DNA of 64,000 nucleotides from an uncultured Alphaproteobacteria bacterium (GTDB taxonomy: Bacteria; Pseudomonadota; Alphaproteobacteria; RF32; CAG-239): the NCBI GenBank assembly GCA_944392835.1, contig CALXYB010000003.1:73389-137388 (forward strand), written 5' to 3'. How positions within the stretch are numbered: the first letter of the stretch is position 1; each line of letters begins with the position of its first letter. Both the position numbers and the translations under genes were made by a program. Of the stretch, positions 1,668 to 50,767 are shown one piece after another. A model generated the notes under the pieces. It did not search any database and was not told the origin of the DNA. It worked only from the letters and a program-made list of their open reading frames with translations.

Positions 1668-1781
1668 AAAGTCGGAATTGAACGAACCCTTGGGTTTGAA
1701 TCCCGACGAAACGAGGTAAGTATTTGAAAACAAAAAAAATCCCTACACAATGCAGGGATTTTTAACTGGTGAGCGCGTCGG
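1668..1781. repeat. Downstream copy of the 114-bp repeat. It is fused to the intact tRNA-Lys gene.
   Basis: The two copies are directly aligned by eye. Differences are the GA/AG transposition at acggag/acgagg and acacgaggcag versus acacaatgcag. Confidence 0.8.
1731..1765 (-). terminator. Intrinsic terminator for tRNA-Lys. It is bidirectional in shape. A duplicate copy lies at ~1527..1561.
   Basis: The sequence is aaaaaaaATCCCTacacaatgcAGGGATtttt. A 7-bp stem is flanked by an A-run and a T-run. It sits immediately 3' of the tRNA on the minus strand. Confidence 0.6.
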
Positions 1782-1842
1782 GATTCGAACCCGAGACCCT
1801 TTGATTAAAAGTCAAATGCTCTACCGACTGAGCTACGCACCC
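1767..1842 (-). tRNA. tRNA-Lys, anticodon UUU.
   Basis: The minus-strand reading is GGGTGCGTAGCTCAGTCGGTAGAGCATTTGACTTTTAATCAAAGGGTCTCGGGTTCGAATCCCGACGCGCTCACCA. The cloverleaf is drawn by hand, with two G-U pairs in the acceptor stem. The anticodon loop is CTTTTAA, and CCA is encoded. Confidence 0.9.
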
Positions 1843-45554: not shown

Positions 45555-45953
45555 ATGGTTGTAAATAAATCAAAAGCAGCATTCAGAACGATTGCCGAAG
45601 TTGCCGATGAGTTGGGCATTGCTACGCATGTTTTGCGCTTTTGGGAGACCAAATTTCCGCAAATAAAGCCGATGAAAAGGAGCGGCGGCAGACGTTATTA
45701 TCGTCCGGATGATGTTAAACTTGTTAGTATTATTAAAGATTATCTTTATGAAAAAAGATATACAATTGAAGGTGTTCAAAAGATTTTTAAAGAAAAAGGT
45801 TTAAAGAACCTTTTAGGAGAAGAGATTCAAAAAGACTTTTTTGAAGTTCCGGAAGAACCTTTGAATGAGCAGACGCAAGAGTTTTTAAGTTCCTTGCAAC
45901 AACAGTTAAAAAAGATGCGTCAAGAACTGAGTGAGGCAATAGAAAAGATATAA
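45555..45953 (+). CDS. MerR-family transcriptional regulator.
   Basis: The N-terminal HTH is [24 protein letters not shown]-terminal coiled coil is present. This is the conserved ihfA-merR pair. Confidence 0.75.
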
Positions 45954-46023
45954 AAACATTTTTTTTAGCAAAAAAGCAGTTGCATAAAAAAAATAATGTG
46001 ATAAACCAATAGGCGTTAAGTTT

Positions 46024-46061
46024 CGGGACGTAGTTCAGCTTAGGTGAGCGCTTGCATGGGG
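46024..46061 (+). pseudogene. Truncated 5' fragment (~38 nt) of tRNA-Pro: acceptor 5' strand through anticodon loop, with no T-arm.
   Basis: CGGGACGTAGTTCAGCTTAGGTGAGCGCTTGCATGGGG corresponds to the first 38 nt of the intact tRNA at 46266. It then diverges. Confidence 0.6.
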
Positions 46062-46265
46062 CTTGAGGCGGAAAGATGTTCCTGAGAAACATCTTTCAAC
46101 GAAAGGCGAAGTTTTGTTAAAGAATAATCAAGCGACAGCGCAGATTATGAATGTTACAAAACGAGTGCCCGCAGCGAGTTAGCCTTGCGAAGCAAGACTT
46201 ACGAGCCAGACAAGAAGTCGGAGACTTCTTGCAAGAAGACAAAAGTATTATTGATGGAGACATAA

Positions 46266-46342
46266 ACGGGACGTAGTTCAGCCTGGTAGAGCGCTTGCAT
46301 GGGGTGCAAGAAGTCGGAGGTTCGAATCCTCTCGTCCCGACC
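46266..46342 (+). tRNA. tRNA-Pro, anticodon GGG.
   Basis: The sequence is CGGGACGTAGTTCAGCCTGGTAGAGCGCTTGCATGGGGTGCAAGAAGTCGGAGGTTCGAATCCTCTCGTCCCGACCA. The cloverleaf is drawn by hand, with anticodon loop ATGGGGT. CCA is encoded. Confidence 0.8.
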
Positions 46343-46346
46343 AGAT

Positions 46347-46376
46347 ATAAAAAGACCACCCAAAGAGGTGGTCTTT
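46347..46376 (+). terminator. Intrinsic terminator after tRNA-Pro. It is copy 1 of a duplicated hairpin.
   Basis: The sequence is AAAAAGACCACCcaaagaGGTGGTCTTTTT. Confidence 0.7.
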
Positions 46377-46388
46377 TTATATCTGTAT

Positions 46389-46426
46389 TGTCGGACGCAG
46401 GATTTGAACCTACGACTTCTTGGATT
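46389..46426 (-). pseudogene. Inverted, degenerate 3'-half fragment of a Pro-like tRNA: variable loop, T-arm and acceptor 3' strand, with no CCA.
   Basis: The minus-strand reading is AATCCAAGAAGTCGTAGGTTCAAATCCTGCGTCCGACA. The tRNA-Pro 3' half is AAGAAGTCGGAGGTTCGAATCCTCTCGTCCCGACCA. Confidence 0.5.
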
Positions 46427-46555
46427 TCTAAAAGCGAATAAGAGCGCTTGTTTGTCAAAAAAACGGAAAATGTCAAATTTTGTACAAAAAAAGTTGAAAA
46501 AAACATATTTTTGCAGTATAAAGAGATAAGTACAAAATATAAAATACAAACTATT

Positions 46556-47254
46556 ATGGAAACGGCACTTGCAAATGTACTTAGAAATTTTATAGTCCTT
46601 GCGGATAATGATGGGACTATAAGGGATACAAATAATGTGAAAGACAAATGTCTGAACGACTTTTGTACCCGAGAAATTGGACCGATGTTGCAGTCTTGCG
46701 TCTTGCCGACTGAAATTCATCGGCAGTTACATGGAAAACCCATGTCGGAGATTTTTGTGGAGATTGCTAAGAAATGCTATGAAAAGACCATCTCTTTAGA
46801 AGAAGGTCAGGAGCTAACAAAAAGGTTGAATCTCTACATCAGACCCGAATACATTTCCCGACCTGTGTATAATGGAGCTATTGAGTTCTATTCTGCATTA
46901 AAAAACATGGGGCTTCCTATGTATATTTTGACCGGAATGGAACCAGACCTTGTTGAAGAAGGTCTGAATGCAAACGGAATGAAGGGAATATTTGATGGTA
47001 TTCTTGGAGCTCCAAAAAACAAAAGGGAAAATATTGCTGAAATATTAGCTAGCCATAAAGGCTGCAGAATTTTGGCAATGGGTGATTCCTATGAAGAATA
47101 TGCCGAAACCACGGCATATCCAGGGACGATATTTCTTGCCTTTGATTTTGAACAAAGGAAGAAGAGGGTATTTCCGGAAAATGTGAATGTTCTTACCCAA
47201 TACGGGGAGAGCGTTTGGCAAGAAATTGAGGTGCAGTTAAAACAGCGTCTCTAA
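46556..47254 (+). CDS. HAD-superfamily hydrolase.
   Basis: LADNDGTIRDT is the DxDGT motif I. The start is chosen at METALANV. The longer ORF-track start overlaps the tRNA fragment. Confidence 0.55.
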   Translation: METALANVLRNFIVLADNDGTIRDTNNVKDKCLNDFCTREIGPMLQSCVLPTEIHRQLHGKPMSEIFVEIAKKCYEKTISLEEGQELTKRLNLYIRPEYISRPVYNGAIEFYSALKNMGLPMYILTGMEPDLVEEGLNANGMKGIFDGILGAPKNKRENIAEILASHKGCRILAMGDSYEEYAETTAYPGTIFLAFDFEQRKKRVFPENVNVLTQYGESVWQEIEVQLKQRL

Positions 47255-47264
47255 AATAATTATT

Positions 47265-47297: not shown

Positions 47298-49220
47298 TTA
47301 GTAATAATATCTTCCGCCCATGCGGTCTCTTTGTCGTTGTTTCATATATTTTTCAAGAGCCTTGTAAGGGGTTCTTTTGGGAGAAATACAATTGAAGAAA
47401 GCATTAGCTAAGCTATAACCGGACATATTACGACTGGTTTTAATATCCAAAGAATCTTTAATCTTCTGTTGTTGTCTTTCTTTTTCGGATTCTGGAATAT
47501 TAAGGCGGTTAATATATTCAGCATATTCCAAAGCATCTTGTTTTTGTCTTTTTGTCAGATTAACGATACTCTTGCTGATACGAAATGAAACTTCAGGATA
47601 AGCGGCTTCCATTTCAAGGTCTTTAATAGATGAAAGAAATTGGTCTAGGTCAGTATTTACGGTATCCTTAGCCGAGTTTGTTAATTCATAAAAGCGCAAC
47701 ATTTCTTTAAACCAAGGGGTTGTATAGGCATGGAGTTGATAGCCTGCATCCATATTTTGCAAAACCATAAAACCGCGTCTTTCACTCCATAAAATAGAGT
47801 TAATGGTTTTAGGTTGGATGCCAATAGCTCCGGCATTAATCTTTTTTTCCAAATGGTTATTCAGTTTTTTAAGGTACAAACCGTAAGCTTCATGTTTGGC
47901 AAAAGGATAGGTAACATCCATAATCTCTTCCAACAAATGCTTAGTATCTTTATCATTAATTTGCGGAGTTTCCAAAGTTCTTGGTGTCGTGTTATTCATC
48001 AGTCTGCGCAAAATTTCAATATTAGTAGTTAGATTACCTTGAGAATCTCTTGTAGAGGCATCATATTTTTTGATGTTAAGTAAATTATCGGACTGAATGT
48101 CATAATCAGGATATTTTTCTTCAACATATTTAAGGACACGCTCTAACTTTTGTTTGCGATAATCAACATCCAAGTTTGGGTCAAGACCTTTAACAGCATC
48201 ATAGTACAAAACCATACGTTTAAGAATTTTATGCTGTTCGGGTTGTTGATTATGAATATAAGAACGCAAGTTAGGGAAGCTTTCATTGATGGCAATAGCA
48301 TCAAGTCTGATTTGCTCAAATCTATTTTCATCGCTTGAAGGTATTTGCTCGGCAATACGACAAAGACGTGTAATATTATAAGGTGTAACCCGAGAAGTTA
48401 AGCATCTGAAAACAAAACCGCTGCTTCCGTGGTCGGTAATATCTGTTCCCCACAGATTTCCGACCGAACTTAGAATTTTATTTTTTCCGCTTTTAATGAG
48501 TGGAACTACGTTATTAATGGCACCATAAGCCAAGTCATCATCAATAGAGGGTAGTTTTTCAATATATTTATCAAAATGGAGAGCAAAGAGCATAAATTTA
48601 GCTGGGGTCAATTTATCAATTGCTTTATCCATAATATCCAGACGTTTTACTTCATCTTGCGCATCTCTGATATTTCTTTTGGTAAAGATAGGGGTTTTAA
48701 CTTGCCCCATATTAGCAATTAATACGCCATAATCCACGGAATAAAACTTATCTATAATTTCCCTTTTAGTAAATTCAACATCCGTTTCATGGTGTGTATT
48801 ATAAAAGACAGAGATATTTATACTATCATTTTTTGCATAGTTCAGAACCTTAGGGAAGGTTTGAGCAATTTTATCAATCAAAATATCATTTTCATCAATG
48901 CTTTGAGGTTCCTTGATATAGTTGCTCAGAACACGACATAAAAGGTTTTTATCATCATCTTCGTTCAATGTTTGAGCAAAATCTGAGAATTTATTGGAGA
49001 TTTGGATAATCTTATGCAATTCAATAGGGTTTTTTGTGCAAAGTTGATAAAGCAATTCAGCTTGAGGAACTTTGAACTTTTTACCAATATTAAGGTTATC
49101 AGCAATATGTGAGATTAATTTGAAATTTTGAGCTTGTATATGCACATCATCAAAATTATTTTTAAGCCGTTCGTTGATGTCATTCACCAGAACGGACGAA
49201 AGAGAAGAATTTTCTGTCAT
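47298..49220 (-). CDS. Large orphan hypothetical protein, Asn/Lys/Ile/Asp-rich with a basic C-terminal tail.
   Basis: The intact ORF is ~640-655 aa, with the start at either GTG 49265 or ATG 49220. It has no recognisable catalytic motif. It ends ...KQRQRDRMGGRYYY. Confidence 0.4.
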   Translation of the reverse strand: MTENSSLSSVLVNDINERLKNNFDDVHIQAQNFKLISHIADNLNIGKKFKVPQAELLYQLCTKNPIELHKIIQISNKFSDFAQTLNEDDDKNLLCRVLSNYIKEPQSIDENDILIDKIAQTFPKVLNYAKNDSINISVFYNTHHETDVEFTKREIIDKFYSVDYGVLIANMGQVKTPIFTKRNIRDAQDEVKRLDIMDKAIDKLTPAKFMLFALHFDKYIEKLPSIDDDLAYGAINNVVPLIKSGKNKILSSVGNLWGTDITDHGSSGFVFRCLTSRVTPYNITRLCRIAEQIPSSDENRFEQIRLDAIAINESFPNLRSYIHNQQPEQHKILKRMVLYYDAVKGLDPNLDVDYRKQKLERVLKYVEEKYPDYDIQSDNLLNIKKYDASTRDSQGNLTTNIEILRRLMNNTTPRTLETPQINDKDTKHLLEEIMDVTYPFAKHEAYGLYLKKLNNHLEKKINAGAIGIQPKTINSILWSERRGFMVLQNMDAGYQLHAYTTPWFKEMLRFYELTNSAKDTVNTDLDQFLSSIKDLEMEAAYPEVSFRISKSIVNLTKRQKQDALEYAEYINRLNIPESEKERQQQKIKDSLDIKTSRNMSGYSLANAFFNCISPKRTPYKALEKYMKQRQRDRMGGRYYY

Positions 49221-49376
49221 AATCAAAAACCAATTAGTTAAAATAGAATGAAGGAAAGCTAGCACAGCTTTATTGAAAAAGCAAATGATTTTCTGTCTAA
49301 AATTAATTTTGTTACATAAATGGTGAATAACTAAGCAAGATGATTATATAAAAAAGAAAACAAAAGGAGAAAAGAC

Positions 49377-50024
49377 ATGAAAAGATTAAGTTCAGCCAGA
49401 AAAGATTATTTACATGTTATGAGTATGTTATGGGATTTTTTTACAAGTAAAACAGGCGCATTTATAATTGGTGTTGGAGCAATTGTTATCGGTATGTATC
49501 AATTTTACATCAGCAAACCGATTTTGGAATATGAATCAGCACATACCAATATTATTTCTGCGGCAGATGTAAGTGATTTGAAAGTAACTGTTAAAGAAAG
49601 AGAATATAAGGATATGTATTTAACGACTTTAACTTTGCTGAATACAGGTTCTCAGGCCTTAGATGGCGGAGATGTATCCAAAATCGGTCATGATCCGATA
49701 AGAATAATTGTCCCCGAAGATGCGCGTTTAGTGGCTTATAACATTAATACCAAACAGACTTCTCCGGCAGTTTCGGCTAAGCTTGTGCCCTATGACGGAG
49801 ATATAGTAATTGATTTTGATTTTTTGAATCCCGACAATCAGATAGCCATAAATCTTTTGCACGAAAAAGAAAGCGATAAATTTGAGATAGTTGGTAGCGC
49901 GGTTAATGTTAATAGTATAAGCAGAGCTTGGAGTCCTGTTCAAAAGCGAGAAATGATAATAGGTATATTGTTGGTTTGCTTTGCGTTATATATTTTTGCT
50001 AATATTTTAAGCAGGCGCTCATAA
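49377..50024 (+). CDS. Hypothetical bitopic membrane protein, with N- and C-terminal transmembrane helices.
   Basis: The product is 215 aa. Hydrophobic segments are GAFIIGVGAIVIGMYQFYI and MIIGILLVCFALYIFANIL. An AAAGGAG RBS is present. Confidence 0.4.
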   Translation: MKRLSSARKDYLHVMSMLWDFFTSKTGAFIIGVGAIVIGMYQFYISKPILEYESAHTNIISAADVSDLKVTVKEREYKDMYLTTLTLLNTGSQALDGGDVSKIGHDPIRIIVPEDARLVAYNINTKQTSPAVSAKLVPYDGDIVIDFDFLNPDNQIAINLLHEKESDKFEIVGSAVNVNSISRAWSPVQKREMIIGILLVCFALYIFANILSRRS

Positions 50025-50097
50025 AAAGACTTTACAATAGGGTAAATTAGAATATGTTGTTTGCCATAGGTACAACAACATATTTGTAAGGAAAAAA

Positions 50098-50649
50098 ATG
50101 TTACATCCATGGCATGGCGTAGGGGCAGGCGAGAATGCTCCGGAAATTATTACCGCAATAATAGAAGTTCCGCGCGGTTCCAACATAAAATATGAATTGG
50201 ACAAAGCCAGCGGTTTGTTGAAAGTTGACCGCATTTTGTATAGTGCGGTACATTATCCGGCGAATTATGGCTTTATTCCGCAGAGTTATTGTGATGATAA
50301 TGACCCGTTGGATATTTTGGTCTTGGGGCAGGAACCTGTTTTACCTTTGTCAATTTTGCGCGCCAAACCGATAGGTGTTATGAAGATGTTTGACCAAGGC
50401 GAGATGGATGACAAGATTATTGCCGTCCACGTAGATGACCCGGAGTATGCGCATTATAAGAGCATAGACGAGCTTCCGCCACATTGTTTGAAGACTTTGC
50501 GCCGCTTTTTTGAGGACTATAAAGTTCTAGAAAACAAGCAAGTTATTATAGAAACCTTTTTAGGGCCAGATGAAGCCAAAAAAACCATCAAAGAAGCAAT
50601 GGCTTTATATCAGGAAAATAAGGAACATTTAACCGGATATGAGGGGTAA
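50098..50649 (+). CDS. ppa: Inorganic pyrophosphatase, family I.
   Basis: DPLDILVL and [21 protein letters not shown] are PPase signature regions. The product is 183 aa. Confidence 0.85.
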
Positions 50650-50767
50650 GAAGAAGGCGGTTTTCCACAAACCGCCTTTTATATTGCCAAAGAAAGCTGA
50701 TAATTATTGCACTAAAGCAAATCTGATGTTAAATTTGCGCAATAGGATAACTTTAGGATTGCGTTTC

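Follow-up and report, generated by a model that had tools for sequence, protein, structure and literature searches.

Between a copy of the 5′ half of the gene for transfer RNA (tRNA) tRNA-Pro(GGG) and the intact gene itself, the genome of an uncultured alphaproteobacterium carries a 149-nt element with a conserved fold. We call this element X, and the 64,000-nt stretch of contig CALXYB010000003.1 in which it lies the window. X is a member of a family of structured elements nested in tRNA sequence, which matches no family in Rfam and of which we found no earlier description. Copies lie beside genes for 12 tRNA isoacceptors, and the flanks of each copy match the tRNA gene that it adjoins. The analysis covered the window together with loci no longer than 15 kb (numbered with the prefix L), and 80 related loci were compared at merR and tRNA-Pro.

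The element and its tRNA-derived flanks

ARAGORN and Rfam agree on the intact tRNA-Pro(GGG) gene (Table 1), placing it 1 nt from the coordinates given in a sequence-only reading of the window. That reading had also described a copy of the 5′ half of the gene upstream and an inverted copy of the 3′ half downstream, and the alignments of both fragments to the tRNA score far above shuffled controls. The upstream copy spans the acceptor 5′ strand, the D arm, the 5′ strand of the anticodon stem and part of the anticodon loop, within which it stops after position 37/38. It matches positions 1–38 with 89% ungapped identity or, when two 1-nt gaps are allowed, in 36 of 39 columns, and its local score is 31 (300 shuffles: mean 8.9, maximum 15). 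The start-to-start spacing to the tRNA is 243 nt, with 204 nt between the direct repeats. The inverted copy (46390–46422, minus strand) corresponds to positions 41–75, begins 47 nt past the gene and scores 23 (shuffles: mean 7.5, maximum 12). Three smaller pieces were absent from the earlier reading: an exact sense copy of positions 41–53 (46211–46223), an exact antisense copy of positions 39–49 (46223–46233) and a copy of positions 22–31 (46441–46450).

X directly follows the 5′-half copy. Its three hairpins are linked by the conserved junctions GGCGAAG, GAGUGMCCGCAGCGAGUUAG and CUUACGAGCCAGA. In this anticodon-loop type of unit, X is preceded by sense positions 1–38 of the tRNA and followed by sense positions 41–53, antisense positions 39–49, a spacer and the tRNA. 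The sense and antisense pieces together form a short hairpin, which is present in every anticodon-loop-type copy compared and which, in L036 and L098, follows the variant form of the tRNA.

The same layout is present in relatives. In L024 and L035, whose MerR proteins are 74 and 71% identical to that of the window, a 5′-half copy, about 204 nt and the tRNA follow one another with start-to-start spacings of 241–243 nt, and L006, L039, L036 and L033 have the layout with somewhat different spacings. The 5′-half piece abuts X in L024, L035, L006, L039, L101 and L036 and matches the tRNA of its own species, perfectly so in L024 and L036. The spacer between the repeats is conserved among relatives, and its hairpins carry obvious compensating changes. 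The sequence-only reading would have been refuted by conservation of the fragments in distant relatives within a known RNA; they are conserved there as parts of one structured element, but this matches no Rfam family.

A second unit, which we call X′, lies beyond the tRNA-Pro terminator in L005, L035 and L029. It runs in the order antisense tRNA 3′ half, linker, sense positions 22–37, X′ body and a piece of sense positions 39–53, and this paralogue is 84–89% identical over the three species. In the window the antisense copy of positions 41–75, a linker and the sense copy of positions 22–31 are present and the X′ body is missing. Because the window aligns with the intact X′ head up to AGAGCGCTTGT and then switches to the region upstream of the HAD hydrolase gene, as it does in L006, the inverted 3′-half copy is the relic of a second unit and not an independent recombination scar.

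Table 1. Features of the tRNA-Pro(GGG) locus, with positions in the window
Feature	Position	Strand	Basis
Promoter-like block, TTGCAT-N11-TGTGATAAA	45980–46005	+	Conservation and position
Copy of tRNA-Pro positions 1–38	46024–46061	+	Local alignment against the tRNA, shuffle control
X core, 149 nt, three hairpins and conserved junctions	46062–46210	+	Covariance model R1, 141 bits, E 1e-30
Hairpin CAAGAAGUC-GGA-GACUUCUUG	46211–46233	+	Sense 41–53 and antisense 39–49 form a 9-bp hairpin
AT-rich spacer from the hairpin to the mature tRNA 5′ end	46234–46266	+	Sequence
Intact tRNA-Pro(GGG)	46267–46343	+	ARAGORN; Rfam tRNA model, 59.2 bits
Perfect 19-bp palindromic hairpin with A and T tracts	46342–46385	no strand	Inverted repeat
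Relic head of X′ unit	46386–46452	+	Aligns with intact X′ heads in L005, L035 and L029

Structure and sequence constraint

The fold of X is maintained by compensatory change. In an alignment of 19 diverse copies made without a model (MAFFT/RNAalifold), 32 base pairs are predicted and 24 of these have compensatory double changes. Alignment of 35 distinct copies to the covariance model R1 gives 92.6% of cells paired compared with 30–41% in slid controls, and double changes in 25 of the 32 pairs, although with an alignment fitted to the model the pairing is somewhat inflated. The covariation score is 0.475 against 0.04–0.07, and none of 500 shuffles reached it. G·U pairs outnumber A·C mismatches by 52 to 12 (27 to 12 when one invariant G·U pair is set aside), and therefore one strand carries the structure. 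The sense strand forms the more stable fold in 15 of 19 copies (Wilcoxon p = 0.002), and one helix is capped by a GC-GNNA-GC apex in 27 of 35. X thus has the one-strand structure with compensatory changes that characterizes structured non-coding RNA.

The sequence is constrained as well. Between the window and L005 the coding genes are 91–96% identical, while 257 nt comprising intergenic spacer, 5′-half copy and X are without a mismatch; the least conserved stretch is the hairpin with its following spacer (46211–46266), at 84% identity. In the comparison with L035 and L024, X is 71–76% identical and the coding genes 67–80%, and ordinary intergenic spacer can be aligned over only about half its length, at some 66% identity. 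X therefore diverges no faster than the genes nearby, and these substitution rates point to selection acting on it.

X does not correspond to any known RNA that we sought. With Rfam 15 at the gathering threshold only tRNA was found in the window and 13 loci, and relaxed searches (E up to 10 on 45900–46600; E up to 1 on L089, L099 and L104) returned only low-scoring chance matches. ARAGORN found neither transfer-messenger RNA (tmRNA) nor its two-piece form at any of the loci. A small protein was rejected, there being no conserved reading frame and copy lengths being out of register. A role for the first hairpin (H1) as an intrinsic terminator was rejected too: the stem is AT-rich, the U-tract is often missing and the scan did not call it. 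By inspection, neither a helix that would close X by pairing its left junction with its 3′ tail nor a pseudoknot between the H1 loop and J2/3 is consistent across copies. RNAalifold predicted a GCUUGC–GCGAGU pairing in Pro-type units, but this is not general because the other types do not contain GCUUGC.

RNAs built on tRNA-like frames are familiar from the tRNA-like domain of tmRNA and from engineered tRNA scaffolds. The comparison is apt for L117, L099 and the module Y units described below, in which a structured body stands in place of a tRNA loop, with the T or anticodon stem closing it and the acceptor 3′ strand and CCA coming after. The window unit differs in having no acceptor 3′ strand of its own and no tag reading frame.

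The family across tRNA genes

How widespread is X? A pattern scan of metagenomes for the core alone, with no tRNA sequence in the pattern, gave 30 loci, largely from human gut assemblies. A tRNA gene adjoins X in 24 of these, and five more have beside it either fragments of tRNA or a tRNA truncated where the contig stops (L098, L109, L111, L094 and L096), so that 29 of the 30 have tRNA or tRNA-fragment sequence next to X. In L111 the only called tRNA is a tRNA-Ser 1.7 kb away, and L094 consists of tandem units. The sole locus without tRNA sequence, L116, is a contig of 1.1 kb. The neighbours are Gly(GCC), His(GUG), Lys(CUU), Ser(CGA), Val(UAC), Asp(GUC), Arg(CCU), Thr(CGU), Pro(GGG) and Pro(UGG). 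Searches with the covariance model add Ala(GGC) in L050 and, weakly, Lys(UUU) in the window, making the total of 12.

Besides the anticodon-loop layout there are two others. Convergent units are inserted in the T-loop: a terminator and antisense positions 76 to about 58 precede X, and a short antisense/sense fold-back of the T-arm, a terminator and the tRNA on the opposite strand follow it. In downstream units the tRNA, its terminator and an antisense/sense fold-back come first, then X, the sense 3′ end and a terminator. The insertion point is consistent. X starts directly after GGG in 19 of 28 copies, and T-loop copies are followed by a CGAACC-like sequence; beside tRNA-His the copy reads as a clean insertion between ...GATGGGGCT and CGAACC.... 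X thus follows a G-run at a 7-nt loop, that is position 37/38 of tRNA-Pro, or, in other tRNAs, the near-palindromic GGG-TT-CGAACC of the T-loop. The near-palindromic T-arm DNA (GGGTTCGAACCC) may be read as the insertion target, with the Pro anticodon arm (GGGGTGCAAG) resembling a half-site, and since the T-arm is nearly symmetrical this would explain why X is found in both orientations.

L117 complements the window. There an intact tRNA-Pro(UGG) and its terminator are followed by tRNA positions 26–37, X, positions 40–77 with CCA, and the same terminator. The record (MT837050.1) is labelled ‘UNVERIFIED: Bacteriophage sp.’, but its gene content (radC, two sugar-nucleotide epimerase/dehydratase genes and a UDP-galactopyranose mutase gene) makes it look like a fragment of a bacterial chromosome. 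An origin of X from phage or plasmid was rejected. No plasmid match was found, this unverified faecal scaffold is the sole phage-labelled record, and a scan of viral contigs gave two chance matches only, both within coding DNA.

A full X unit is about 245 nt. Tandem arrays with periods of 244–245 nt occur in L094 and L098, and local tandem duplication is also seen in L091. Leaving aside tandem duplicates and closely related genomes, copies at different tRNAs are 60–75% identical, and copies that share a genome or contig can be strongly diverged (in L106, 143 bits for the Gly copy and 56 for the Ser copy; in the window, 141 for Pro and 13 for Lys). In view of this cross-tRNA identity and of the conservation of X′ over three species, the history of X fits long vertical descent with local tandem duplication and not a recent burst.

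The low-scoring copy in the window stands beside its other tRNA, tRNA-Lys(UUU) (1767–1842, minus strand), where an X-type unit in the convergent layout lies within 1464–1842. A 114-nt direct repeat (1464–1577 and 1668–1781; 96% identical, spacing 204) contains a terminator hairpin and the antisense 3′ end of tRNA-Lys. Also present are inverted copies of the T-arm and a decayed X-like core (1578–1720; R1 13 bits, E 0.19). The repeat was detected by a repeat search and missed by Tandem Repeats Finder because there are fewer than two full copies.

In two loci, L103 (1700–1770, tRNA-Val) and L113 (2510–2580, tRNA-Arg), a sequence common to both, TCAAAATAGACA..., takes the place of H1 and adjoins the start of a divergent gene. 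Here it may serve X as a promoter.

Two further modules are found in similar settings. Module Y lies in the T-loop of a partial sense tRNA copy in L005 (6790–7480), L006 (7551–7740), L012 (4658–4840), L023 (6751–6874), L027 (7119–7360), L033 (minus strand, downstream of the tRNA) and L089 (6700–6806), where X is nested next to it. With slashes marking its boundaries, the sequence reads GGTTCGA/CTACMAGC...GGCGRGACGG..CGCCGG...GCGCAGWG../AATCC, and is followed by the tRNA 3′ end with CCA and a duplicate of the terminator of the tRNA. The module is conserved, and at the gathering threshold Rfam gave no match to it. Beside tRNA-Ala(GGC), L050 (9650–10900) holds an array of three diverged X copies together with a GC-rich module Z, whose insertion site is the T-loop in antisense copies of tRNA-Ala; every unit of the array ends in the same terminator.

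A putative promoter and the proposed origin of the unit

The promoter-like block upstream of the 5′-half copy has the consensus TTGCAT-N11-TGTG[A/C]TAAA across relatives. In the relatives L037, L059 and L060, which have no X, it ends 14–17 nt before tRNA-Pro. In X-bearing relatives it ends 17–21 nt before the 5′-half copy, and the intact tRNA lies 260–288 nt from it. A simple sigma-70 scan did not call the block in the window, but its conservation and position suggest that it is the putative ancestral promoter of tRNA-Pro. As the block adjoins the 5′-half copy, that copy would therefore stand at the original start of the gene, and in this respect the promoter position supports a history of insertion. 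In the window X itself lies between the conserved block and the tRNA, a placement that lends indirect support to its transcription. At the other end of the locus, the palindromic hairpin that overlaps the end of the tRNA gene is a putative bidirectional terminator, which a strict terminator scan did not call.

The explanation that we favour, to which we give a probability of about 0.55, is that X entered a copy of the tRNA gene by sequence-specific insertion at the junction of G-run and loop (at 37/38 for tRNA-Pro), and that an intact gene was retained through local duplication. The old tRNA-Pro promoter would then drive the 5′-half copy, X, the tRNA-derived hairpin, the spacer and the intact tRNA. 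X would be made in the long leader of a tRNA-Pro precursor and be freed when RNase P cuts the 5′ end of the tRNA, and the hairpin that follows X may protect or define its 3′ side. The comparisons establish that the family exists, is tied to tRNA genes, takes its flanks from the local tRNA, keeps its structure on one strand and is constrained in sequence. The transcription and processing of X, its origin by insertion and duplication, and any cellular role are what we infer.

The nearest published analogue of the gene layout is the tRNA-Thr locus of the archaeon Caldiarchaeum, an organism with a tRNA splicing system, in which a 5′ fragment lies upstream of the functional copy with an insert of 1.8 kb that encodes a recombinase; its authors explained the layout by insertion of a mobile element and recombination (Sugahara et al. 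2012, PMC3293823). The window has the same succession of 5′ tRNA fragment, inserted DNA and functional copy, but its insert, in a bacterium, measures 0.2 kb, codes for nothing and is conserved in structure. Mis-annotated tRNA fragments have been described as a general phenomenon (PMC9897764).

Several observations weigh against the insertion and leader-processing scheme. Decayed copies of X are present in L023, L012, L015 and beside tRNA-Lys in the window, and many relatives have no X at all; the element is therefore dispensable. Units of the convergent and downstream types have a terminator-like hairpin on either side of X and no evident promoter, so that transcription of X there is uncertain. 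A promoter of its own for the convergent units was considered and rejected, the upstream gene being co-directional or divergent according to the locus and no shared promoter being seen. The inflation of the R1 pair counts noted above belongs here too, and we know of no process that would yield tRNA-matched flanks at 12 different genes.

X as possible mobile DNA or intron-like RNA

The strongest competitor, which we regard as possible but distinctly less probable, is that X is a selfish, non-autonomous DNA element moved in trans by an enzyme acting on hairpins in single-stranded DNA, its hairpins being conserved for transposition and not for any role as RNA. REPIN, MITE and PATE repeats are short, non-coding, hairpin-rich and intergenic, often lie near terminators, are sometimes in tandem and have a patchy distribution. 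X resembles them in size, setting, hairpins, tandem cases and patchy presence. The precise junctions are consistent with a target GGG-NN-CRA in the T-arm palindrome or in the look-alike anticodon arm of tRNA-Pro, and a palindromic target would account for the two orientations. Presence differs among relatives, there are decayed copies, the periodic arrays of L094 and L098 and the nesting of X inside Y in L089 are of the kind expected of such modules, and the G·T bias would fit hairpins in single-stranded DNA equally well. Yet X has a multi-branch fold in place of a single long palindrome, and its GNNA apex loops are an RNA-type motif. Its flanking repeats are derived from the target and are tens of nucleotides long, unlike terminal inverted repeats or target-site duplications, and its association with tRNA genes is strict. 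Copies within one genome or contig are divergent (L106 and the window), which argues against a recent burst. Among orthologous copies the structure is retained from species to species, and their rate of change does not exceed that of coding genes. No transposase adjoins any of the 30 pattern matches. Nor is there a bias of orientation with respect to replication, such as a single-stranded DNA transposon might show: GC skew on the X-sense strand is of mixed sign.

An intron-like origin is less probable still. X would be the remnant of an RNA, possibly a small self-splicing or self-cleaving ribozyme, that entered tRNA loops as RNA and was fixed through complementary DNA with fold-back junctions, its copies now residing in dead partial tRNAs. 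Group I introns do occur in the anticodon loops of bacterial tRNAs, for example in cyanobacterial tRNA-Leu, in Azoarcus tRNA-Ile (about 205 nt) and in Agrobacterium tRNA-Arg. Like them, X would be a small structured RNA in an anticodon loop, Alphaproteobacteria being among the hosts of both, and in tRNA-Pro it lies at 37/38, the canonical position of tRNA introns. Its conserved single-stranded junctions and GNNA loop recall catalytic RNAs, and sense/antisense fold-back junctions stand beside X in all types of unit. Against this, none of the copies of X is enclosed by two intact tRNA halves, and ARAGORN in intron mode found none. Positions 38–39 are missing, and excision of X would thus leave the anticodon arm incorrect. 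The boundaries, ...GGG/CUKRAGG and ...CCAGA/, do not carry the group I hallmarks of a U at the end of the 5′ exon and a terminal G. As to the group I core (P3–P7, terminal G, U at the 5′ splice site), the Rfam searches gave no Intron_gpI match, and no group I or ribozyme family matched at E up to 1–10. X is, moreover, also found in T-loops and in either orientation.

A broader form of the idea takes in the sister modules. X, Y and Z could together be a new class of RNA elements, intron- or ribozyme-like and self-inserting, whose targets are the 7-nt T-loop or anticodon loop of tRNAs and which become fixed beside tRNA genes. We hold this to be speculative and doubtful. If it were true, the class would be a bacterial counterpart of tRNA introns with a mechanism of its own.

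Gene neighbourhood and the question of an island boundary

The gene order around the locus is mfd, bamE, yceD, rpmF, plsX, fabH, hup, merR, tRNA-Pro, HAD hydrolase, a 655-amino-acid open reading frame (ORF), a 215-amino-acid ORF, ppa, glycosyltransferases and adhE. A Pfam scan of 18 ORFs at 37.3–58.6 kb found housekeeping families only (those of mfd, bamE, yceD, plsX, fabH, hup, merR, HAD, ppa, the glycosyltransferases and adhE), with no integrase or phage domain. Homologues of the MerR protein are in metagenome-assembled genomes (MAGs) labelled Alphaproteobacteria, ‘Azospirillum sp.’ and Candidatus Scatocola.

The sequence-only reading had placed the start of a region of orphan genes at the tRNA. 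This does not stand, since related MAGs have kept the downstream genes. The 655-amino-acid ORF (47298–49265, minus strand) has no Pfam domain, and its region is low in GC (33–36%), but homologues 74–91% identical are present in many related gut MAGs, on contigs of up to 2 Mb. With that identity kept across so many relatives despite the low GC, the ORF is a clade-specific protein. It is syntenic in L005, L006 and L012, yet the locus is plastic between close strains, and the HAD gene, ppa and the 215-amino-acid ORF are each missing from one close relative or another. Y-X′-Y units replace the HAD hydrolase gene (46556–47254) in L005, where ppa (50098–50649) is missing at the locus. L006 does not have the 215-amino-acid ORF (49377–50024), and its interval from merR to the tRNA promoter is longer by about 760 nt. 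These strain-level differences around the tRNA, with respect to L005 and L006, fall at 46416–47264 and 50009–50654 of the window.

Among the 80 loci compared, tRNA-Pro(GGG) often comes after merR, but how far after varies widely, or it is inverted some kb away. It lies on the opposite strand, 1–5 kb downstream of merR, in L009, L010, L033, L036–L039, L041, L059 and L060. The tRNA-Pro cassette would therefore have been inverted or relocated in the history of the clade, together with its X unit where one is present.

These features bear on the proposal that the fragments are attachment-site (att) scars left as islands or prophages were repeatedly integrated and excised by integrases, and mark an island boundary. 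The junctions fall in the anticodon loop and the T-loop, which are typical sites of integrase crossover, and we count this in its favour. In the Islander model, integration splits a tRNA gene, the element restores it and the displaced fragment marks the end of the island; tRNA genes are thus the classic targets, with such a fragment at each island end (PMC4383910). The window has a displaced fragment in direct repeat of the intact gene (46024–46061), as islands and prophages of this type have a partial direct repeat beside the intact, regenerated gene, and the locus differs between strains in the three genes named above. However, the classical model of integration does not fit because the repeats are only 204 nt apart, with no kb-sized foreign DNA between them, because the duplicated part is the 5′ half and not the 3′ part, and because no integrase is present; the insert of about 200 nt has no cargo either, and none of the 18 flanking ORFs scanned has an integrase or phage domain. 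Products of integrases are seamless, whereas a conserved element stands exactly at the joint here. One and the same core accompanies 12 different tRNAs, its flanks matching the local one each time, X shows RNA-like covariation, and the downstream genes are kept across the clade. The locus resembles an island footprint but fails three of its four defining features, and att scars are already largely refuted as an explanation and most improbable. What survives of the earlier proposal is that the fragments record events of insertion or duplication at this tRNA.

Implications

Fragments of tRNA genes are routinely read as the footprints of integrases, but here they outline a conserved fold of 150 nt. 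The hosts of X are Alphaproteobacteria, common but uncultured, of the human and animal gut. If X is an RNA gene, then it represents a new family, probably processed together with tRNA precursors. If instead it is a mobile element, its landing site is the most conserved sequence of the tRNA gene, with the intact gene somehow preserved, and it would bear on the origin of split, intron-bearing and permuted tRNA genes. On either reading, R1 provides a concrete covariance model with which the X family can be searched.

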